Positions 288 through 48,338 are shown, counted from the stretch's first letter. The stretch is 64,000 bases of DNA from Candidatus Undinarchaeota archaeon (GCA_964636545.1 CAZWSR010000004.1:1-64000); one strand, 5' to 3'. Notes: a model not told the origin generated them from the letters alone. Made by a program: numbers and translations.

Positions 288-566
288 GAGTGACACAGCA
301 GTCTTCAATGGACTAACCAGAAAAATGTTGCTTAACCTTGCTCAAGAGCTCCACACCACGATCTGCAAGCATCAAAAATTCCTGTTAATGGCTGCTTCCT
401 TCCGGATCTGACCAGGTTCGCAGGAACATCGATCCCACAGGGCAATGCTTCGACGCCCAAGTGCAAGACAACATCCCGCTGGCAAGCCTCTCAAAGTGTT
501 CAGCTCCGCCATAAAGCCCATTTGCGGTAACAAGGTAGGGCTAATTCCCCAGCCTAGCTGTGCCGC
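288..566 (-). ncRNA. ffs: Archaeal SRP RNA (7S)
   Basis: Minus strand has the helix-8 motif GAACCTGGTCAGATCCGGAAGGAAGCAGCC; ends GGCACAGC/GCTGTGTC pair; about 280 nt. Confidence 0.93.
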
Positions 567-17250: not shown

Positions 17251-17706
17251 ATGGCATATTCAAAAATTAGACAGCACCGTGGCAGAAAGAACTGTGGAGG
17301 ACACAAGAAAAAGCGCAGGGGTGCAGGAAACCGTGGAGGTCGTGGAAATGCTGGAATGAGCAAGCATAAATGGACTTGGGTTACAAAAAATAATCCAAAA
17401 TACTTTTGCAAGCCTAGTATGAAGCCAAAAATGGACAAGCCACCAGTGCTTAACTTAACTTACATCAGCAAATTAATACTCTCAGAAGATAAAAACGAGT
17501 TTGATCTTAGCAAATATAAGATTCTAGGCAAAGGCAGCATTACCAAAGCAGTTACAGTCAAAGCTCTAAGCTTTTCAAAGCTAGCTGAAGAGAAGATAAA
17601 GAAAGCCGGGGGAAAAACAGAAACTTTATATGCCCCTAAAACAGAACCTGAGGGAGAGGAAAGGGATCAGGCAGCAGGCAACGGGGATCAGGATAACAAA
17701 AGCTGA
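17251..17706 (+). CDS. rpl15: 50S ribosomal protein uL15 with repeat-derived C-terminal extension
   Basis: RGAGNRGGRGNAG, KILGKG, KI..AGG. Confidence 0.97.
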   Translation: MAYSKIRQHRGRKNCGGHKKKRRGAGNRGGRGNAGMSKHKWTWVTKNNPKYFCKPSMKPKMDKPPVLNLTYISKLILSEDKNEFDLSKYKILGKGSITKAVTVKALSFSKLAEEKIKKAGGKTETLYAPKTEPEGEERDQAAGNGDQDNKS

Positions 17707-17731
17707 TACCCGAAACCCGATACCAGATACC
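17663..17731. repeat. Heptad imperfect palindrome, family 2 (GGnnnCA/TGnnnCC)
   Basis: gggatca ggcagca ggcaacg gggatca ... tgatacc cgaaacc cgatacc agatacc. Confidence 0.8.
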
Positions 17732-17749
17732 TGGAATAGGTGTTGCTAA

Positions 17750-25765: not shown

Positions 25766-26242
25766 TTATTCAGAAGGTTTTGCTTCTATTTCAGGAGTTG
25801 GGGCTTCTGGCTTAGGTGCTTCTGCGATTTTCTTTGGTTCAGGAGTCTTAGGAACTTCATCATTTCCAACTAATATAGCATTAATTGTTCCAGTTTGTCC
25901 AGGTCTGCTAACCACCTTTGCTAAACCAGCACTTGTATCAACAATAGCGCCCTTTGTTATGGTGTTTCTTCGCACAAAGTGGGGGTTTGATGGGTTTTCC
26001 TTAACAGTTTTGATCTCTGCTTTTTGGTATTTTCCTGTTTTTTTATCTAGAACATTAGCTTCTTTAACTAAAAGAGCACGAGTTTTTGTAGTTGCTCCTC
26101 GACCACGCATAGTTTTGGTTTTCTTGTCGCCGATCGTAACTTCAAGTAGAGTATGGCCTAGCTGTGCTAATCTTTTACCTTTTAGATGATGGTACTTGCC
26201 ACCAGTTGATTTTCTCTTTGAATAAGCTTGTAGTTTTGCCAT
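25766..26242 (-). CDS. rps8e: 30S ribosomal protein eS8 with Pro/Glu-rich tail
   Basis: SKRK.TGG, NP.N..F.RRN.ITKGA, SRPGQ.G. Confidence 0.97.
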   Translation of the reverse strand: MAKLQAYSKRKSTGGKYHHLKGKRLAQLGHTLLEVTIGDKKTKTMRGRGATTKTRALLVKEANVLDKKTGKYQKAEIKTVKENPSNPHFVRRNTITKGAIVDTSAGLAKVVSRPGQTGTINAILVGNDEVPKTPEPKKIAEAPKPEAPTPEIEAKPSE

Positions 26243-26306
26243 GAGTATCAATTTACACAGAGTTTACAATATATAAAGTTAATGGTGGGTTTTGAAATGT
26301 TAATAG

Positions 26307-26380
26307 TGGGCCCGAAGGGATTTGAACCCTCAACCTAGTGATTAAGAGTCACTCGCTCTACCAGCTTGAGCCACGGGCCC
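26307..26380 (-). tRNA. tRNA-Lys(CTT)
   Basis: Anticodon arm AGTGA-CTCTTAA-TCACT. Confidence 0.96.
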
Positions 26381-26434
26381 TATATTGACTAACAGATTTT
26401 AACTTTTAAAAACTTAACGCCCATTGAAGGGCAA

Positions 26435-26656
26435 TCACTTCTTTACTGCCTTTTTAACATTTCGAATATCACGAGCCATAATTTTCCTCATTTTAACTGC
26501 TCTGCCTTGTCCAGTTCGTCTTTTTGCACTGTTTCCAAAGCCACAGCTAGAACAAATTTTCTTGCTTTTATGATATGCTAATTCGCCGCATCTACGACAC
26601 TTGATATGGGTTTTGCCCTTATTATGTCGTCCACGGCTTGGAGTTCCCTTACTCAT
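26435..26656 (-). CDS. rpl37e: 50S ribosomal protein eL37
   Basis: KGTPS.G, HI.CRRCG..AYH, C..CGFG. Confidence 0.97.
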
Positions 26657-26662
26657 TTTTCC

Positions 26663-26721
26663 TCGTTATTTGTTTTTAGTTGTTCGTTTTTCGTAAACCA
26701 AAAACGAATAACCAACAACGA
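26663..26721. repeat. Heptad imperfect palindrome, family 1 (tNgttNt/aNaacNa)
   Basis: tcgttat ttgtttt tagttgt tcgtttt tcgt-aa-acca aaaacga ataacca acaacga. Confidence 0.85.
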
Positions 26722-26722
26722 A

Positions 26723-26914
26723 TTACTCTTTAAATGTAATGAACAAAATATTATCGCCACGCACCAACATAGTTTCTTCTTTTTCAATGATTAAGTTCAT
26801 ATGTGCGTCAAATGCTTTCAATATTCCAGTTATGTCTTTACCTTCTTTTAATTGAATAACAATTTGTTTATCTATTGAGTTATTCAATGAATCAAAGGGT
26901 CTTTGTTCAGTCAT
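26723..26914 (-). CDS. Sm-like archaeal protein (Lsm/SmAP)
   Basis: RP.D.L, G.L..FD.HMNL, VRGDN; conserved linkage to rpl37e. Confidence 0.95.
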   Translation of the reverse strand: MTEQRPFDSLNNSIDKQIVIQLKEGKDITGILKAFDAHMNLIIEKEETMLVRGDNILFITFKE

Positions 26915-26965
26915 TGTGCGTTTCCTATTCAGTGAGTGCTATATAAAGTTTATCCTGTTGGTTAA

Positions 26966-27012
26966 GGTAGCAGCCCTCGGCTATCAGTTCCTGATGGCTG
27001 ACTGCTGACACC
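26966..27012. repeat. Heptad imperfect palindrome, family 2
   Basis: ggtagca gccctcg gctatca gttcc tgatggc tgactgc tgacacc; reverse complement closely matches 54073-54108. Confidence 0.8.
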
Positions 27013-27016
27013 TAGC

Positions 27017-27571
27017 TTAAACCTTTTTCTTAATGTGAGTAACATCTCTCTTCAAAGTTTGAATGTGTTTTACAGTCTCTTCCATGTGCTTTTTAACATC
27101 ACTCATGTGGCGTTTAACAGATTCTACACCTTTATCTGTCTTAATATTTAGATTGTAATCTTTTTTAACTGTCCTGATCAGTCCTTTAATATCTTCTAAA
27201 TCCTTTTGCATATCTGCAATTTCGTGCTCTGCTTTGCGATTTACAGCAAAATCATATTCAAATCTCTTGCGATCTTTTTCTGATTGCCTGTTTTGGCTCA
27301 TAAGAATTATTGGTGCCTGGAATGCTGCAAGACAAGATAAGAATAAATTAAGTAAGATGAATGGGAATGGGTCAAATGGTTTCCCACCAAGATATCTTGT
27401 TAAATAATAACTGTTTAGCCCAACCCAAACAACCAAAACAATAACGAAACTTAAAATAAACACCCAAGAACCCATTAAAGCAGTCATTCTATCAGCAGCC
27501 CTATCAGCAAAAGATTCTTTGTTTTTTGGAGGACGTTTGTCGTTATGCAGTAAATGGAATTTTTCAGCCAT
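27017..27571 (-). CDS. DUF1003 membrane protein
   Basis: GSW.FI, FDPFPFILLNL.LS..AA.QAP.I.MSQNRQ. Confidence 0.92.
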   Translation of the reverse strand: MAEKFHLLHNDKRPPKNKESFADRAADRMTALMGSWVFILSFVIVLVVWVGLNSYYLTRYLGGKPFDPFPFILLNLFLSCLAAFQAPIILMSQNRQSEKDRKRFEYDFAVNRKAEHEIADMQKDLEDIKGLIRTVKKDYNLNIKTDKGVESVKRHMSDVKKHMEETVKHIQTLKRDVTHIKKKV

Positions 27572-27619
27572 AAAAAGTGATAGAGAATTATGGTTTAAAT
27601 AGTTTTAGCAGAAGAAAAG

Positions 27620-27696
27620 TGGAGCCCCGAGGGAGAGTTGAACTCCCGACCTTTCGCTTACAAGGCGAACGCTCTACCGAGCTGAGCTATCGAGGC
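27620..27696 (-). tRNA. tRNA-Thr(TGT), CCA encoded
   Basis: Anticodon arm TTCGC-CTTGTAA-GCGAA. Confidence 0.96.
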
Positions 27697-27747
27697 ATAG
27701 CTCATATTACAAATTAGACGGAATAAAAAGGTTTTGGTGTCTTAAAA

Positions 27748-28488
27748 TTATGGTTTTTGAACAGAAGCTGAACCTGGATTAAATTTCTGTACAACTTCAT
27801 ACAATAATGGTACCAACTTGGTTTCTGCTTTGCGAATATGCTCTCTTACTGTATTTTCATGTAAATCAGCAAGCTCTGCCATGTCTCTAATAGAAACTTT
27901 TCTAGGATATGTGTAATACCCAAGTTTGTACGCCATATTAAAAATCTCTAATTGTTTTGCACTAAGTTCTCCAGGTAACATATTTGCATCTTTTGAAGAA
28001 ATCAAACATAAAAGATCAGTTGGTTTTGGAGTGCCGATATCTGTTTTCTTTAGTTTTAGAAGTTTAGCTTCTCCAATTTCATTCATTGTGTTATAAAACT
28101 GCATCATACTATCTTTATTTTCAGACATGATTGTAGCAGTTTCCATGCCATCACTATCATGCACTGAGTCAAAGAACAAACATCCAGAGTCTGTTATGCT
28201 TTGAGTTGCGGTTTTATCATACTTTGTCTTTGCCAGTACCCTCATTACATTATTAGATTTGTACAAAACTTTTAAGTCTTTAACAAGATCATGGGACTTG
28301 ACGTATTCAAAAGCAGCATTAAGTTCTGCAGTAGTACCTTTCCAGGTATTGTCTGTAAGAACATATTTCTTTACTGCATCTGTGAAAAACGGTTTGGTCT
28401 CGATATCAAGTTCTGGATATTTTTCAGATAAGTCTACAACCCAACACTTGTGTCTGAACCCCACCTTCGAAATTAATACATCCATCAT
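27748..28488 (-). CDS. Bacterio-opsin-activator-type (HTH_10) transcriptional regulator
   Basis: LS.KQ..I...AY..GYY.YPR......A...T..EH.RKAE.KL. Confidence 0.9.
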   Translation of the reverse strand: MMDVLISKVGFRHKCWVVDLSEKYPELDIETKPFFTDAVKKYVLTDNTWKGTTAELNAAFEYVKSHDLVKDLKVLYKSNNVMRVLAKTKYDKTATQSITDSGCLFFDSVHDSDGMETATIMSENKDSMMQFYNTMNEIGEAKLLKLKKTDIGTPKPTDLLCLISSKDANMLPGELSAKQLEIFNMAYKLGYYTYPRKVSIRDMAELADLHENTVREHIRKAETKLVPLLYEVVQKFNPGSASVQKP

Positions 28489-28533
28489 ATTTCTCCTGAA
28501 CTTTGTTTTATAAAAGGTTTTAGATGTTGAAAT

Positions 28534-28585
28534 AGTATGAGTAAATATGGGGTGTGGTAACCGCTATTTTCAATTTACTCATACT
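28534..28585. promoter_or_regulatory. 13-bp perfect inverted repeat upstream of the HTH_10 gene
   Basis: AGTATGAGTAAAT-N26-ATTTACTCATACT. Confidence 0.55.
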
Positions 28586-28753
28586 CAAGAGTTCCACTTA
28601 ACCATTGGTTACAACTTCCACCTAAATATTTAGAGGACTTGTTTTTGCTTGGTGGTTTGGGTTTCATCTTAAACTAAATTGTCAAAACTAGGTTATTTTA
28701 GTTACACTGTGATATCACAGGGGTTTAAAAGCAAATTAAAAATAATAGAAAAG

Positions 28754-28878
28754 TGCCGACGGCGTGGATTGAACACACGACCTCCAGATTTCTTAGCGCC
28801 GAATAAGTCATTTCCCGCAAGGGGATCAGCACTCATAACGCATATGAGTCTGGCGCTCTACCGCTGAGCTACGTCGGC
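28754..28878 (-). tRNA. Elongator tRNA-Met(CAT) with 53-nt intron (28790-28842) at 37/38
   Basis: CCAGA-CTCATA[intron]A-TCTGG; BHB with one C.A mismatch in the central helix. Confidence 0.92.
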
Positions 28879-28994
28879 ATTGATTTGGAGGAACTCAGCA
28901 GGAGTTTTGGATTAGTTTTGCTGTTTATAACTTTTATTGATAGGAATATTCGCAAAAGCATAAATTAATAACCACTAAATCAGTATTCGATTTA

Positions 28995-29876
28995 ATGAAA
29001 GCCCTAATAATCCAAAATCCAATGTCTGGAAGAAGCAATGAATTTGATACTTCAGTAAAAGATATTTTCAAAAAAGCCAACATCAAAATTGAAATAAAAC
29101 AAACAATAGCAAAAGGAGATGGCACGAATCTTGCAAAATCTGCAATTGGAAAGTATGATATTGTTATTGCTGCTGGCGGCGATGGAACAGTTAATGAAGT
29201 AATTAATGGGATTATTGGAAAAAGCATAAAGCTTGGAATCCTGCCTCTTGGTACTGAAAATTCGGTTTCTAAAGAGCTTGGAATTCCTGAAAACTGTAAA
29301 TCAGCTGCAAGAATTATTGCAAAAGGAAATTCAATTAAATTTGATATTGGTTCACTTGAAAACGAAGCAGGAAAACGTTATTTTGCATTAGTTGCTGGTG
29401 TTGGATTTGATGCAGCAATTGCTTCAGACTTAACTCCTCACTTGAAAAAAATGCTTCATGGTGCAGCATATCTTCTTGAAGGCCTAAAAGAACTAGTAGA
29501 ATACAAAAAACACAAAATGATTGTGGTACTTGATGATAATGAAGAGCTTGAAGGCTATTTTGCAATTATTGGAAATGTGAAATATTATGGAATGGGTTTG
29601 GAAATGACACCAGAAGCAGACCCAACATCAGGCCAACTTGACTTAATCCTTTTCAAAAAAGAGAATGTTTTTGAGATGTTAGAATACGGAGTTCATGCAC
29701 TTTTACATAATATTGACAAATTTAAGGATGTAGAATACAGGAAATTCAAAAAAGCAGTTATTGATTCAGAAGGAGACGTGCTTGTACATGCTGATTGTGA
29801 ACTTTCTGGTGGAACCCCAGCAACTTTCCAAGTGCATGAAAATGCAATTGAAGTATTTTATAAAAAAATACAGTAA
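28995..29876 (+). CDS. Diacylglycerol/lipid kinase family (YegS/DagK)
   Basis: NP.SG, AGGDGTVNEV.NG, LPLGT.N, GVGFDA. Confidence 0.93.
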   Translation: MKALIIQNPMSGRSNEFDTSVKDIFKKANIKIEIKQTIAKGDGTNLAKSAIGKYDIVIAAGGDGTVNEVINGIIGKSIKLGILPLGTENSVSKELGIPENCKSAARIIAKGNSIKFDIGSLENEAGKRYFALVAGVGFDAAIASDLTPHLKKMLHGAAYLLEGLKELVEYKKHKMIVVLDDNEELEGYFAIIGNVKYYGMGLEMTPEADPTSGQLDLILFKKENVFEMLEYGVHALLHNIDKFKDVEYRKFKKAVIDSEGDVLVHADCELSGGTPATFQVHENAIEVFYKKIQ

Positions 29877-29911
29877 GGGTTATTGGTTTTTCGTAGTTAG
29901 TTATTCGTAGA
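29877..29911. repeat. Left heptad arm (family 1) flanking the four-helix-bundle gene
   Basis: gggttat tggtttt tcgtagt tagttat tcgtaga. Confidence 0.85.
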
Positions 29912-29964
29912 TAAACTCACTTGAGTTAACAAAAGTTTATTAACACTTAAGCAATCGAGCACAT

Positions 29965-30318
29965 ATGCAAGATTTTACAAAACTAGAAATTTATCAAGAA
30001 GCACAGACATTAGCATTAGACATCTATACTATTACAAAGAAATTTCCAGGAGATGAACGATTTGGAATGGTTCAACAGTTAAAAAGAGCTAGTACTTCAA
30101 TAGGTGCAAATATTTCAGAAGGTGCAGGACGTTCTAGTAATAAAGATTTTTCTAGATTTTTATTTAATTCAGTTGGTTCTTTAAATGAGCTTCTTCATTT
30201 TTTGATGCTTGCTCATAAATTAAAGTATATAACTACTGGAGAATGGGTTATGATTTCTGAAAAAAGCGATAAATTAGGTAGAAAAATTAACAAATTTCTA
30301 CAATCACTTTCTAGATGA
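29965..30318 (+). CDS. Four-helix-bundle protein (23S rRNA IVS-protein / Avd-like family)
   Basis: F..L.IYQ.A, FP..E.FG...Q..RA..SI.ANI.EG.GR, GS..E. Confidence 0.95.
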   Translation: MQDFTKLEIYQEAQTLALDIYTITKKFPGDERFGMVQQLKRASTSIGANISEGAGRSSNKDFSRFLFNSVGSLNELLHFLMLAHKLKYITTGEWVMISEKSDKLGRKINKFLQSLSR

Positions 30319-30321
30319 TTT

Positions 30322-30363
30322 ATTACGAAAAACGAAAGACAAAAAACCAATAACAAATACTAA
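30322..30363. repeat. Right heptad arm (family 1) flanking the four-helix-bundle gene
   Basis: attacga aaaacga aagacaa aaaacca ataacaa atactaa; contains a perfect 13-bp complement of the left arm. Confidence 0.85.
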
Positions 30364-30395
30364 CCTTTTTAAACACAAAATAACTAACCCAAATC

Positions 30396-31467
30396 ATGTC
30401 AAAATTTAAGAATTGGATAATGAGTGGGTTTGGAGTTTTAGTTCTTGGACTTTTCTTGAATTTCTTGCGTGGTAGTGGTTTTACAGGAGTTTTGAAAAAT
30501 GCTAATTATTATTTAATGATGTGGGTCGTGATTCTAAATCTAGTTGTTGTTGCAATCTGGACCTGGCGATGGGACATTGTTCTTAGGGAAATGGGTTACA
30601 AACTCAATTACTTTTATCTTTATGTTGCTACAATTATTGGAAACTTTGGAGATACAATAAGTCCTGGAGCAAGAATGGGTGGAGAGCCATTCCGTGCATA
30701 TTATGTTGAAAAAAAGCATAAGGAAGTTAAAGTTGATGATCTTGCAGCATCGCTTGTTCTTGAAAAGATGTACAACACCACGGTTTTCTTTGCAATAACT
30801 GCAATTTCAATAATTTACATTCTTTTAAAATACACATTTTCAATAAAACTACATGTGCCCTTGTTAATCATTTTAGTTCTTGGTAGTGGAATGATGGCAG
30901 GAATCTTTTACTTAATGTTTAAAACAAAAAAAGGAATAGCTGCATTTGAGAGATTAATGCATTGGATTTTAGAAAAATTATCACATACTCATTTTTGGAA
31001 ATATTTTGAAAAGAAACATATGAGTAAAAAGAAAGTAGAAGCAATCTTTGACAAACACATTAGAAAATTCTTCCAGGACATTGGAAAATTCAGTAGAGGG
31101 GGTGGTTTGTGGACAAAAGGTGCGTTAAATGCAGTATTGTATTGGATAGCACTTTATTTACAAGCATACTTGTGTTTCCTTGCAATAGGGAGTAACATCA
31201 GTTTTGCAGCAGTTGTTGCTATTATTTCAATTTCAAATATGGCTGGAGCAGTTACTTTATTACCAAGTGGATTGGGAATTGTTGAAATAATCCAAACATC
31301 ACTTTCAATGTTATTCGGTGTTGCACTTGCAGAAGCAGGAGCAGCAATCCTACTTCTAAGAGGAAATTACTACTTGTTTGGAATAATATTTGGATATGTT
31401 GTAATGCTAATTGCAACACAAGGTAGAGGGCATAAAGAAATTAAAAAGCATACGCAAGAAGAATAAA
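30396..31467 (+). CDS. UPF0104 / lysylphosphatidylglycerol-synthase TM (flippase-like) protein
   Basis: RW..., P.AR.GGE..R, P.GLG..E; multiple TM helices. Confidence 0.88.
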
Positions 31468-31469
31468 AG

Positions 31470-31572
31470 TGGTCCCCTCTCCGAGATTTGAACTTGGAAC
31501 CTTCCGGTTTCTATACAAGCAATTGCTTGCATCGTTCTACAGCCGGACACTCTACCGTTGAGCTAAGAGGGG
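31470..31572 (-). tRNA. tRNA-Tyr(GTA) with 28-nt intron (31509-31536), CCA encoded
   Basis: C1-G72; TCCGG-CTGTAG[intron]A-CCGGA; BHB helix CTGT/ATAG. Confidence 0.94.
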
Positions 31573-31620
31573 TATCAAATAAATCAGGATAGGAGATTAT
31601 AAGCTTTTTGATTAAAGTTT

Positions 31621-31686
31621 TTGTAATTCGTTATTGGTTTTTTGTTATTCGTTTACGAACTACAAAGAACAAACAACCAATAACTA
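31621..31686. repeat. Heptad imperfect palindrome, family 1
   Basis: ttgtaat tcgttat tggtttt ttgttat tcgt-tt-acga actacaa agaacaa acaacca ataacta. Confidence 0.85.
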
Positions 31687-31725
31687 AAGATAACATATAA
31701 AAACACCAAATACCTACTGCGATTA

Positions 31726-33450
31726 ATGATTCAGAACGTCTTTGTTGAGCTAAGTATTCTAATCCTAATTGTTGTAGGCATTTCAGCAATCATGCGGATC
31801 CTAAAACAGCCGCTGATTATCGGTTATATCCTAGCAGGAATTGTTGTCAGTCCATCTATTTTTAATATTGTTGGAGCAGCTGACTCAATATCAACTTTTG
31901 CAGAAATTGGGGTTGCGTTCTTGCTTTTCATGGTCGGCCTTAATTTGAACTTAAAAGTAATAAAAGATGTTGGAAAAGTTGCACTTGTAACAGGGTTAGG
32001 ACAAGTTGCAATAACGTCAGTTGTATCATTTGCAATGTGTATGTTCTTTGGTTTTTCAAAAATAACCTCACTTTATGTGGCAATTGGGCTTACGTTCAGC
32101 AGTACAATTATTGTAATGAAAATGCTTACAGATAAAAAAGAAACCGATGCGCTGTACAGCAGAATTGCAATTGGATTCCTTATTGTTCAAGATATTATTG
32201 CGATCTTTTTACTCATCTTCTTATCTTCATTTACAGGACAAGTTGGTTTCTCAAACTTTGTTATAAAAACATTCTTTGGTGGAATGGGTTTACTTTTATC
32301 ACTGTTTTTAGTTGGAAAATACATATTGCCACCAGTAACCAAAGCAATTGCAAAGTCACAAGAATTCCTTCTTCTGTTTTCAATTGGCTGGTGTATGGCA
32401 TTGGCGTCACTGTTTTATTACCTTAATTTTTCAATTGAAGGTGGTGCGCTTCTTGCTGGAATAACACTTTCAATGTCCCCCTACAGATTTGAAATAAGTT
32501 CCAGAATGAAACCATTGCGAGATTTCTTTATTGTGATGTTCTTTGTGCTCCTAGGGACACAAATACAACTTGGAGCAATGACTTCGTACATACTTCCAAT
32601 AGTTTTGTTTTCAATGTTCGTGCTTATTGGCGGTCCAGTAATAATGATGGGAATTATGGGCTTTATGGGATATACAAAACGAAATAGTTTCCTTGTTGGA
32701 ATAACTACGGCGCAGGTTAGTGAATTTTCATTGATTTTGATTGCACTTGGTGTGCGATTGGGTCACTTAACTGGAGAGATTCTTTCATTTATGACAGTAA
32801 TTAGTTTAATAACAATTGCAGGTTCTGCATATTATATCAAATACTCAAAAGGTATGTACAATGAATTTTCACCATTCCTTAAGATTTTTGAGCGTTCAGG
32901 AGAGAAAGTTGATGAGCATAAATATCACAAAGACAAGAAATATGATGTTTTCTTATTTGGATATAATAGAATTGGATATGATATTTTGAATGCAATTGAA
33001 AAAACAAAAAAGAGTTTTCTTATTCTCGATTATAATCCTGAAATAATTGTAAATCTGGCAAAGAAAGGTTATGAATGCCGATATGGAGATGCTAGCGACC
33101 CTGAACTTTTGAATGAACTTGATTTCTGTCAAGCAAAAATGGTAATTTCAACAATACCAGACTTAGAAATAAACTTGATGCTTCTGAAAAGATGTAAAAA
33201 TGAGAAAAAGAATGCAGTTATGATATTTGTTTCACATAGTATTGAAGAAGCAATGAAACTATATGAAGCTGGAGCATCTTATGTTGTAATGCCACACTTC
33301 CTTGGGGGGCATCATGCTTCAGTAATGATTGAAGAACATGGATTAAATTTGAACAAATTTTTAAAAGAAAAAGTCAAACATATCAAAGATCTAGAAACCA
33401 GAAAGAGTATAGATCACGAGCATCCAACAACTGAGAGAACTACAAGTTAG
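31726..33450 (+). CDS. CPA2/Kef-type cation:proton antiporter with TrkA-N domain
   Basis: QP.I.GYI.AG, SST.I..K.L, QD, QVSEFS, G..R.G, YGDA. Confidence 0.93.
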   Translation: MIQNVFVELSILILIVVGISAIMRILKQPLIIGYILAGIVVSPSIFNIVGAADSISTFAEIGVAFLLFMVGLNLNLKVIKDVGKVALVTGLGQVAITSVVSFAMCMFFGFSKITSLYVAIGLTFSSTIIVMKMLTDKKETDALYSRIAIGFLIVQDIIAIFLLIFLSSFTGQVGFSNFVIKTFFGGMGLLLSLFLVGKYILPPVTKAIAKSQEFLLLFSIGWCMALASLFYYLNFSIEGGALLAGITLSMSPYRFEISSRMKPLRDFFIVMFFVLLGTQIQLGAMTSYILPIVLFSMFVLIGGPVIMMGIMGFMGYTKRNSFLVGITTAQVSEFSLILIALGVRLGHLTGEILSFMTVISLITIAGSAYYIKYSKGMYNEFSPFLKIFERSGEKVDEHKYHKDKKYDVFLFGYNRIGYDILNAIEKTKKSFLILDYNPEIIVNLAKKGYECRYGDASDPELLNELDFCQAKMVISTIPDLEINLMLLKRCKNEKKNAVMIFVSHSIEEAMKLYEAGASYVVMPHFLGGHHASVMIEEHGLNLNKFLKEKVKHIKDLETRKSIDHEHPTTERTTS

Positions 33451-34311: not shown

Positions 34312-34429
34312 GTCTGACGGCCATAGCGGAGGGGTTCCACCCGATCCCATTCCGAACTCGGCAGTTAAGCTCTCCAGCGATTTGTTGATTACTGCGTTTT
34401 GACGTGGGAAAAACAAGACGCTGTCAGGC
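34312..34429 (+). rRNA. rrf: 5S rRNA
   Basis: GGCCATAGC...CCCGATCCCATTCCGAACTCGG.AGTTAAG; terminal helix CTGACGGC/GCTGTCAG. Confidence 0.95.
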
Positions 34430-34595
34430 ACTTTAATCATGTCCACATCCGCGGAAATTCGAGGTTAAGATTGTTGATTCTAAAGAAATCTGACTAAATT
34501 TTAGAAGCATACAAGCAGCCATAGCTATAGACCTTGCTCTCGATTGGTCATGAAGAACACCCAAATGTCAAAACTTTGGATGTATCATAGGAAAT

Positions 34596-34670
34596 GCCCC
34601 GGTAGTGTAGCGGTTATCATACGACCCTGTCACGGTCGTGACGCGGGTTCGAGTCCCGTCTGGGGCGCCA
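34596..34670 (+). tRNA. tRNA-Asp(GTC), CCA encoded
   Basis: Anticodon arm CGACC-CTGTCAC-GGTCG. Confidence 0.96.
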
Positions 34671-34672
34671 AT

Positions 34673-34746
34673 GGACCCGTAGCTCAGGCTGGGAGAGCAC
34701 TTGGCTTTTAACCAAGGGGTCGAGGGTTCAAATCCCTTCGGGTCCG
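34673..34746 (+). tRNA. tRNA-Lys(TTT)
   Basis: Anticodon arm CTTGG-CTTTTAA-CCAAG. Confidence 0.96.
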
Positions 34747-42494: not shown

Positions 42495-42560
42495 ACGTTG
42501 TTCGTCTTTAGTAATTCGTTTTTAGTAAACGAATAACGAACAACCAAAAACAAAAAACGA
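42495..42560. repeat. Heptad imperfect palindrome, family 1
   Basis: acgttgt tcgtctt tagtaat tcgtttt tagt-aa-acga ataacga acaacca aaaacaa aaaacga. Confidence 0.85.
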
Positions 42561-48176: not shown

Positions 48177-48263
48177 GCCGAGGTGGCGGAATCCGGTAAC
48201 GCGCTCGCCTTGAGAGCGAGTTCTCGCAAGGGAATGTAGGTTCAAATCCTGCCCTCGGCGCCA
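48177..48263 (+). tRNA. tRNA-Ser(TGA), CCA encoded
   Basis: Anticodon arm CTCGC-CTTGAGA-GCGAG; long variable arm. Confidence 0.95.
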
Positions 48264-48270
48264 ATTTCTA

Positions 48271-48338
48271 AGATTTTAGAGTTTGGAATTTAGAATTTGG
48301 AATCAACTCTAAACTCCAAAATCTAAACTCTAAATTCT
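48271..48338. repeat. Heptad imperfect palindrome, family 3 (RGAnTTT/AAAnTCY)
   Basis: agatttt agagttt ggaattt agaattt ggaatca actct aaactcc aaaatct aaactct aaattct. Confidence 0.85.

Follow-up and report, generated by a model that had tools for sequence, protein, structure and literature searches.

In REPIN/RAYT systems a low-copy protein gene is accompanied by its own family of short inverted repeats, which also occur as intergenic non-autonomous copies, and parts of two accounts describe such systems as long-lived and mostly vertically inherited (PMC3337134, 10.1101/2022.05.22.493013). Here we describe a 482-nt unit of comparable layout in a 64,000-nt stretch of DNA from a Candidatus Undinarchaeota archaeon (GCA_964636545.1 CAZWSR010000004.1:1-64000, contig C4; hereafter the window), in which a gene for a four-helix-bundle protein of the S23p/PF05635 family lies between two inverted arrays of 7-nt units (heptads), with gene-less pairs of such arms scattered through the genome. 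By analogy, and tentatively, we favour the reading that the unit belongs to a REPIN/RAYT-like module of protein plus repeat. Each RAYT clade has its own type of REP, and the RAYT gene is flanked by REPs. The components are not the same, since RAYT is a tyrosine (Y1/HUH) transposase whereas the protein here is a 117-aa four-helix bundle with PF05635 only, and the REPIN repeat is a 20–25-nt palindrome whereas the repeats here are tandem 7-nt units with two free positions.

The same gene family and a similar layout occur in the intervening sequences (IVS) of 23S rRNA genes in Coxiella burnetii, Leptospira and others, which are lodged in rRNA helix 25 or 45 and where an S23p/PF05635 open reading frame (ORF) lies in the loop of a stem formed by terminal inverted repeats. 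Tandem heptamers (GACAGAT) in variable number precede the ORF in the Coxiella IVS, and RNase III cuts at the first repeat; ORF-bearing IVS are treated there as selfish elements, and a proposal by Ralph and McClelland is cited in which the ORF has a role in mobility (passages of PMC4990558). Unlike an IVS, the unit described here lies between protein genes, has its own TATA-like promoter and dozens of gene-less copies, and resides in an archaeon in which no RNase III gene was found. The IVS stem is a near-perfect 28 bp, whereas the arms here are imperfect arrays that are ~74% paired. In a literature search that missed most subscription journals, no paper connected the PF05635/S23p genes as a family with arms of heptamer repeats; only the Coxiella case mentions heptamers.

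Comparable intergenic tandem heptamers are the STRR (short tandemly repeated repetitive) heptamers of cyanobacteria. GGGNATC heptamers of Xanthomonas and Nostoc are described in parts of PMC4692102 as intergenic, transcribed, preferentially in arrays of about four units, and with 70–75 convergent (inverted) pairs per Xanthomonas genome; they are explained there as G-quadruplex formers, and in the text of that paper 'S23' has no occurrences and S23p/PF05635 is not mentioned. The GGNATC-type unit found here, in the arms of a cassette on contig C23 and in a hairpin at 17662-17736, is the same unit, although the G-quadruplex explanation, which calls for at least four runs of at least three G, does not extend to the families here, of which four of the five have no GGG runs and the GGGTATC-type has them in part. 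A homologous four-helix-bundle fold is found in Avd of diversity-generating retroelements, a pentamer that binds nucleic acid. Part of PMC10053308 applies the name Avd-like to PF05635. The present account adds the archaeal setting, where the promoter is of archaeal type and no RNase III gene was found, the insertion boundaries, the map of site states, the co-occurrence across related genomes, the lack of arm-to-arm covariation, and the limit of four to five units per arm.

The inserted unit and its parts

The unit lies between a gene for a DAGK/YegS-type lipid kinase and a gene for an LPG-synthase-type membrane protein. These genes are adjacent in two same-genus relatives (G001 and G002; the genome of the window is G000), with spacers of 32 and 36 nt. 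At the junction G002 reads cagtaa followed directly by ACTAACCTTTTTAAAC, and the window reads cagtaa, then the 482 nt of 29877-30358, from GGGTTATT through to CAAAT, and then ACTAACCTTTTTAAAC. Because arms and gene together make up the difference from G001 and G002, they represent a single insertion. Its features, with the basis of each, are as follows.

29877-30358, + strand: entire insertion, 482 nt, from left arm through promoter-like module and PF05635 gene to right arm; relatives' spacers
29878-29912, + strand: left arm, five heptads, GGTTATT GGTTTTT CGTAGTT AGTTATT CGTAGAT; direct reading and inverted repeat
29912-29929, + strand: small palindrome, TAAACTC-ACTT-GAGTTAA; alignment A2
29931-29943, + strand: A-rich stretch and TTTATTAA, a box like a transcription factor B recognition element (BRE) and TATA box, 22 nt before the ATG; A2 consensus AAAAAAAnTTTATAAA
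29965-30318, + strand: PF05635/TIGR02436 four-helix-bundle gene, 117 aa; profile matches
30321-30355, + strand: right arm, five heptads, TATTACG AAAAACG AAAGACA AAAAACC AATAACA; imperfect complement of the left-arm type

An earlier, sequence-only reading of this stretch had proposed a transposase-free and possibly mobile element, its gene bracketed by a left arm of five 7-nt units and a complementary right arm, with a perfect 13-bp core. Both arms are seen where the list places them, profile searches identify no recognisable transposase in the unit, and the proposal of mobility agrees with its being an insertion relative to two same-genus genomes. The core is located at 29879-29891 / 30342-30354 but is within what shared heptad units give anyway. 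An inverted-repeat search returned arms of 47 nt at 29863-29909 / 30324-30370, which are 74% complementary.

The 117-aa protein matches PF05635 with an E value of 6.4e-33 and 113.6 bits (cut-off 33.8) over model positions 2-106 of 106, and TIGR02436 with 106.3 bits (cut-off 24). Its PDB relative 2gsc matches at E 2.2e-16 and 2rld is also alike in sequence; each of the two entries holds five chains. A Xanthomonas relative is a homopentameric toroid according to a passage of PMC4990558, and Xanthomonas is the source of the solved PF05635 structure 2gsc. Searches against Rfam gave no match at the cassette at gathering score.

We aligned 22 archaeal cassettes (alignment A2) and find that the block between left arm and ATG consists of the palindrome, an A run, and then TTTATAAA about 22–27 nt before the ATG. 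The palindrome has the form (T/A)TAACT-N6-AGTTAA (consensus AACTCAnnnGAGTTAA), with A30, G31 and T32 at 90% or more and T33 invariant. With just four constant base pairs and a variable fifth, it resembles a site for a protein more than an established RNA stem. In several cassettes the left half of the palindrome is directly duplicated (TTAACTCA ATAAACTCA), and five copies in the relative G010 have a 12–17-nt insert inside it. A TATA-like hexamer is present 40–52 nt before the start of the hidden Markov model (HMM) match in 21 of 24 archaeal loci; L003 (the window cassette), L005 and L011 lack it by the pattern used, the TTTATTAA of L003 being one base off. We take the conserved block to be the BRE/TATA box of a near-leaderless message, from what is generally known of archaeal promoters. 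As it lies between left arm and ATG, an mRNA started from it would be expected to exclude the left arm.

Heptad arrays, hairpins and PF05635 genes in the genome and its relatives

Tandem arrays in this genome are commonest at a 7-nt period: a scan of the whole genome found 48 arrays at lag 7 and 0–13 at each other lag from 3 to 12. Using arms of 28 nt with at least 20 pairs and loops of 0–30 nt, we identified 79 hairpins, whereas block shuffling of the genome left 6; a heptad period is present in 57 of the 79. ORFs take up 91% of the DNA, yet 51 of these 57 are intergenic, with 4 overlapping a called ORF and 2 at contig ends. Two of the 57 are singletons and the others form five families (TTTAGAG-type 15, CGTTATT-type 13, GGCAGTA-type 13, GGGTATC-type 8, TCAGCCC-type 6). 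Those noted in the window are listed here; none is assigned a strand.

26668-26723, unstranded: gene-less hairpin, CGTTATT-type, 22/28 pairs, loop 0; RNA fold -17.2 kcal/mol, z -4.4
31627-31687, unstranded: gene-less hairpin, CGTTATT-type, 22/28 pairs, loop 5; fold -17.3 kcal/mol
42496-42559, unstranded: gene-less hairpin, CGTTATT-type, 21/28 pairs, loop 8; fold -15.6 (+ strand) and -21 (- strand) kcal/mol
48271-48331, unstranded: gene-less hairpin, TTTAGAG-type, 23/28 pairs, just after a tRNA gene (48177-48260)
17662-17736, unstranded: gene-less hairpin, GGNATC-type, by eye, below the scan threshold; the right arm is a lag-7 array

In each of the three largest families the heptad has five nearly invariant positions and two that vary almost freely, and left and right arms are alike in make-up, indicating constraint on the units rather than drift from a master copy. 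A general rule of two fixed, one free, three fixed and one free position per heptad holds in these three families and was rejected because it fails in the TCAGC-type family. We also compared pairing of the two arms of each hairpin with pairing between arms of different hairpins of the same family. Out of 24, the own-arm and cross-hairpin values are 20.0/20.9, 18.8/19.5, 18.5/18.7, 18.1/16.4 and 17.8/18.9, and none of the differences is significant; own arms pair no better than those of other hairpins, so that it is the unit type that is kept and not the pairing. There is no sign that arm-to-arm pairing is maintained at the free heptad positions. Among 110 arms, 52 have four units and 49 have five, with three of six or more and six of three or fewer; the lower limit is set in part by the detection threshold, the upper one is not.

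Periodic inverted arms enclose each of the four PF05635 genes in this genome, and the units of the four cassettes all differ (NGTTNTT, GGNATCN, CTAGGGN with mixed 7/8 spacing, and TCAGNNN), the window cassette's own family being (C/G)GTTNTT. When 343 ORFs of 80–220 aa were ranked by flanking inverted repeats, PF05635 genes took places 1, 2 and 3 (scores 45, 43 and 29), ahead of a best score of 28 for any other ORF. The fourth ranks 122 because of an over-long ORF call, and scores 32 when anchored on the HMM match. The sequence-only reading had proposed a genome scan for 7-periodic inverted repeats that enclose four-helix-bundle genes; here four of four genes have periodic inverted arms, with 57 gene-less heptad hairpins besides, and family sorting and array comparison agree that the gene-less hairpins share heptad families with cassette arms. 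Of its more specific claims, the three same-family hairpins are present (26668, 31627 and 42496), but with centres of 0, 5 and 8 nt and not the constant 2 nt that it described.

PF05635 was found in 8 of the 61 archaeal genomes searched. These are the present genome, the two others of its genus, 4 of 10 further genomes in the order and 1 of 4 elsewhere in the phylum; the remaining 44 archaea gave none. Of the 25 archaeal loci, 23 have enough flank, and in 18 of these the best inverted repeat has a best period of 7. The exceptions are L002 and L022 with period 8, L010 with long arms lacking a short period, L015 with none by the method used, and the window cassette L003, where the alignment ran beyond the heptads. 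The closest non-archaeal relatives (37–51% identity) are from Bacteroidota, Saccharibacteria, Peregrinibacteria and one cyanobacterium. Among the best 80 bacterial matches to the single window protein, arms again consist of short tandem units, mostly of 8 or 9 nt, with best period 7 in 20 of 76 loci. A mismatched-flank control placed 19 of 76 real pairs above its 95th percentile and is uninformative, many Flavobacteriaceae cassettes sharing one repeat type. In a quick tree (SH-aLRT) with bacterial rows from these best 80 matches, a weakly supported branch sets apart 23 of 24 archaeal rows, which adjoin rows from the candidate phyla radiation and the cyanobacterium, and the G015 copy groups with Bacteroidota.

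Arm type tends to follow protein relatedness in these comparisons. The correlation of protein identity with arm likeness is 0.36 (Spearman, 153 non-independent pairs), and mean arm likeness is 17.7/21 at protein identities of at least 60% (a bin of n=3) versus 12.1 below 45%. The L007 and L017 proteins are 80% identical with arms alike at 19/21; L006 and L018 have the same arm likeness at 58% protein identity, in different families and with no shared flank established. By eye, clades of the quick tree share units, NGT-type in L003, L006 and L018 and RG(Y)TNG-type in L012, L016, L019, L009, L013 and L020.

We then sampled eleven genomes of the order, 26–218 kb each, for lag-7 arrays.

G001: PF05635 carrier, 5 lag-7 arrays, 100 kb sampled
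G002: PF05635 carrier, 0 lag-7 arrays, 100 kb sampled
G005: PF05635 carrier, 5 lag-7 arrays, 88 kb sampled
G007: PF05635 carrier, 1 lag-7 array, 90 kb sampled
G010: PF05635 carrier, 11 lag-7 arrays, 129 kb sampled
G003, G004, G006, G009, G011, G012: no PF05635 found, 0 lag-7 arrays, 640 kb together

Together there are 22 arrays in 508 kb of the five carriers and none in 640 kb of the six non-carriers. At periods 5, 6, 8, 9 and 10 there are 0–1 arrays per genome, in carriers and non-carriers alike. G003 (98% complete, 218 kb sampled), which has neither gene nor arrays, shares its genus with G010, where PF05635 has 9 matches. Co-occurrence of gene and arrays among the sampled kin genomes is strongly hinted at. 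Arrays were compared with cassette arms by windowed identity at a threshold of 17/21 (position weight matrix similarity at 0.80 gave almost no matches), and gene-less arrays reach this likeness to arms of their own genome in 4 of 7 cases in G001, 3 of 7 in G005, 9 of 14 in G010, and 10 of 69 in G000.

The sequence-only reading had also called for orthologous places in relatives to be compared for filled, empty and absent alleles, and all three states occur. The gene-less hairpin at 31627 is absent from the orthologous place in G001 and G002, and mapping the flanks of relatives' cassettes onto G000 gave five further sites.

C3, ~72286-72354: absent in G000; filled in G001 and G002
C17: absent in G000; filled in G007 and G010
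C20, 2173-2244: empty hairpin (TTTRGAR units) in G000; filled in G010, same start after the same gene, related units (GTTWGAR)
C7, 42888-42948: empty in G000; filled in G001, different unit type
C1, 165 kb: filled in G000 with a different paralogue and arm type; filled in G001 and G002

Orthology at C20 rests on two upstream genes only. At that site (G000:C20:2173-2300, L196) the upstream ORF crosses the empty hairpin's left arm and terminates within its right arm, which lengthens the tail of the protein by ~24 codons, and the orthologous ORF in G010 ends within heptad one of the left cassette arm. In G001 and G002 the upstream gene takes its stop codon from the first heptad (TAGCTCG). Beside the C7 site, at ~C7:42975-43045, lies an element of ~70 nt common to G000 and G001 (TGGCTCAGCAGCTACC...CATGGCC; L195, G000:C7:42200-43700, and also the downstream flank of L008). 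Its minus strand has AUGAUGA and CUGA boxes, which we take to resemble those of an archaeal C/D box sRNA; Rfam gave no match at E 0.01.

A proposed protein-plus-repeat module and its rivals

In a module of this kind, a PF05635 gene would sit within two inverted arrays of 4–5 tandem units, 7 nt long in this lineage, with gene-less arm pairs scattered elsewhere. The gene-bearing copy would encode a protein specific for heptad arrays of its own type, and gene-less hairpins would persist or spread only where that protein is made. One subunit of a pentameric ring could possibly read one heptad; arms of 4–5 units and pentameric relatives make one subunit per unit a natural guess. Constraint on unit sequence and arm length, and not on pairing, is as expected if a protein reads the units, and we infer that the protein may bind heptads and that the hairpins may depend on it.

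Several observations weigh against this reading. Profile search finds no domain besides PF05635 in the 117-aa protein and no known nuclease or transposase domain, and no target-site duplication is visible at the clean junctions of the window site and the mapped sites; the presence/absence sites and dispersed gene-less copies would fit a transposon with derivatives like miniature inverted-repeat transposable elements, but the transposase and the duplications do not accompany them. The genome comparison consists of samples that are phylogenetically non-independent, and G002 has two PF05635 genes yet no array in its sampled 100 kb. Gene-less arrays of G000 match arms of G010 (15/69) and G001 (11/69) as well as its own (10/69), and the TTTAGAG-type (15 hairpins) and GGCAGTA-type (13) have no cassette of matching arms in the 82.8%-complete assembly. 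Arms in Flavobacteriaceae (L047-L119) have 8-nt (TTAGATTG-type) or 9-nt (TTAGACTTC-type) units, up to ~15 of them, with arms of ~135 nt in L100, so that unit length is lineage-specific and not fixed at 7, and a strict rule of five units for five subunits fails in that family.

A further point of this kind, an empty hairpin in G000 facing a filled cassette in a relative at C20 and C7, also fits the main rival to the module. By this account the heptad hairpins would be elements in their own right, whether repeats of the host or a distinct selfish family, and a small mobile promoter-plus-ORF module would insert at the apex of existing hairpins, with empty sites ancestral and filled ones derived. 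The C20 site (filled in G010) and the C7 site (filled in G001) allow it, as do homologous promoter-plus-ORF modules between arms of quite different heptad families, and the presence at C1 of a different paralogue and arm family in G000 from those of G001/G002. We nevertheless consider it unlikely, because heptad arrays are missing from the 640 kb of the six PF05635-free genomes, because the alternative allele is absent and not empty at three clean sites (the window, G000:C3 and G000:C17), and because random capture would not give the tendency of arm type to follow protein relatedness.

An alternative explanation acts on RNA: the arms would fold into a long stem in read-through transcripts and be cut by a nuclease specific for double strands, separating or destabilising the messages of neighbouring genes, with the protein as a by-product or RNA chaperone. 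Gene family and ORF-in-loop layout are those of ORF-bearing IVS, with the GACAGAT heptamers and RNase III cut of Coxiella as precedent (part of PMC4990558), and empty hairpins here fold at -15.6 to -21 kcal/mol with z of -2.4 to -4.4. In many Bacteroidota cassettes the left arm abuts the ATG, so that the ORF there is transcribed only through the arm. In this archaeon, however, no RNase III gene (PF14622) was found, although with the genome 82.8% complete its absence is not proven; the assembled parts of 23S rRNA (C27/C28, model positions 159-2143) are contiguous with no insertion; the BRE/TATA-like box lies inward of the left arm; the arms show no covariation; and 13 of the 51 intergenic hairpins lie between divergent genes. 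The suggestion made from sequence that the unit is excised from transcripts in the manner of an IVS is not supported, given no RNase III gene found, a TATA-like promoter of its own inside the left arm and no extra pairing of the arms. An RNase III-excised IVS is not supported in this archaeon, and an RNA-level role, which we regard as quite unlikely here, is weakened but may hold in bacteria.

It is very improbable that the hairpins serve the host in transcription termination or in some other regulatory role, with the gene lying between two arms by coincidence. Oligo-T runs are archaeal termination signals and are contained in T-rich units such as GGTTTTT, and often only a few nt separate a hairpin from a stop codon. 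Most families have no T run, however, and the spread of hairpins over co-directional, divergent and convergent spacers (33, 13 and 5) is roughly proportional to the lengths of these spacers (40.0, 21.5 and 8.7 kb), unlike terminators; the top three places of PF05635 genes in the flanking-repeat ranking and the lack of such hairpins in sampled stretches of PF05635-free related genomes also argue against it.

That the gene encodes the Avd accessory protein of a diversity-generating retroelement is hardly credible, since its weak matches to bAvd (23.6 bits) and to the retroelement Avd model NF033474 (30 bits) are below cut-offs of 40 and 80 bits, the 82.8%-complete genome has no reverse transcriptase (PF00078) match, the locus has no template/variable repeats, and its neighbours are the lipid kinase and LPG-synthase-type genes. 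Telomere-like healing of breaks by GT-rich units, considered because the GT-rich arm is 5' on both strands, was rejected because no reverse transcriptase was found in the genome.

Extending the protein-plus-repeat module beyond this archaeon, PF05635 rings might read short tandem repeats in a sequence-specific way, each subunit taking one 7-nt unit, and protein clades might co-evolve with their units, gene and arrays forming a self-perpetuating module that crossed from bacteria to DPANN archaea; this is possible, if doubtful. If true, one mechanism would join rRNA IVS, the heptamers of Xanthomonas and cyanobacteria, and the commonest Avd-like family outside retroelements, and would offer a compact, possibly programmable scaffold for repeat recognition. 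A protein that reads its own repeats would be a new protein-repeat partnership across bacteria and archaea, in a very large family with no known function outside retroelements, and for prokaryotic heptamer repeats that have been unexplained for decades. The genome offers a clean and small test case, with four paralogues, five repeat families, 57 gene-less hairpins, and relatives with and without the gene, and the failure to find an RNase III gene removes the usual explanation for such stems.

Host genome and other features of the window

The host is a small DPANN-type archaeon, with a genome of ~0.84 Mb (840 kb) in 39 contigs that is 82.8% complete. An archaeal signal recognition particle RNA at window positions 292-564 (111.4 bits) is in keeping with an archaeal host. 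A 5S rRNA gene followed by two tRNA genes is present at 34313-34746, with 23S fragments on other contigs. Contigs C27 and C28 of G000 are near-identical and ~1.95 kb long, each covering the 23S model positions given above; the rRNA is either present twice or differs between strains within the bin.

In marine metagenome runs we found no contig joining across 29877-30360, although contigs drop rare variants and are silent on rare empty alleles; contigs of four such runs (X2, X9, X10 and X11) span both cassette ends and the empty hairpins with no difference. Contigs identical to window 26000-32500 occur at low depth (~3–6) in metagenome runs of many studies, with seawater, marine and hydrothermal-vent sources among them. 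Two tRNA matches in the window are unusually long, 125 nt at 28754-28878 and 100 nt at 31473-31572, and probably contain introns. The intron part of the tRNA at 31473-31572 differs among G000, G001 and G002.

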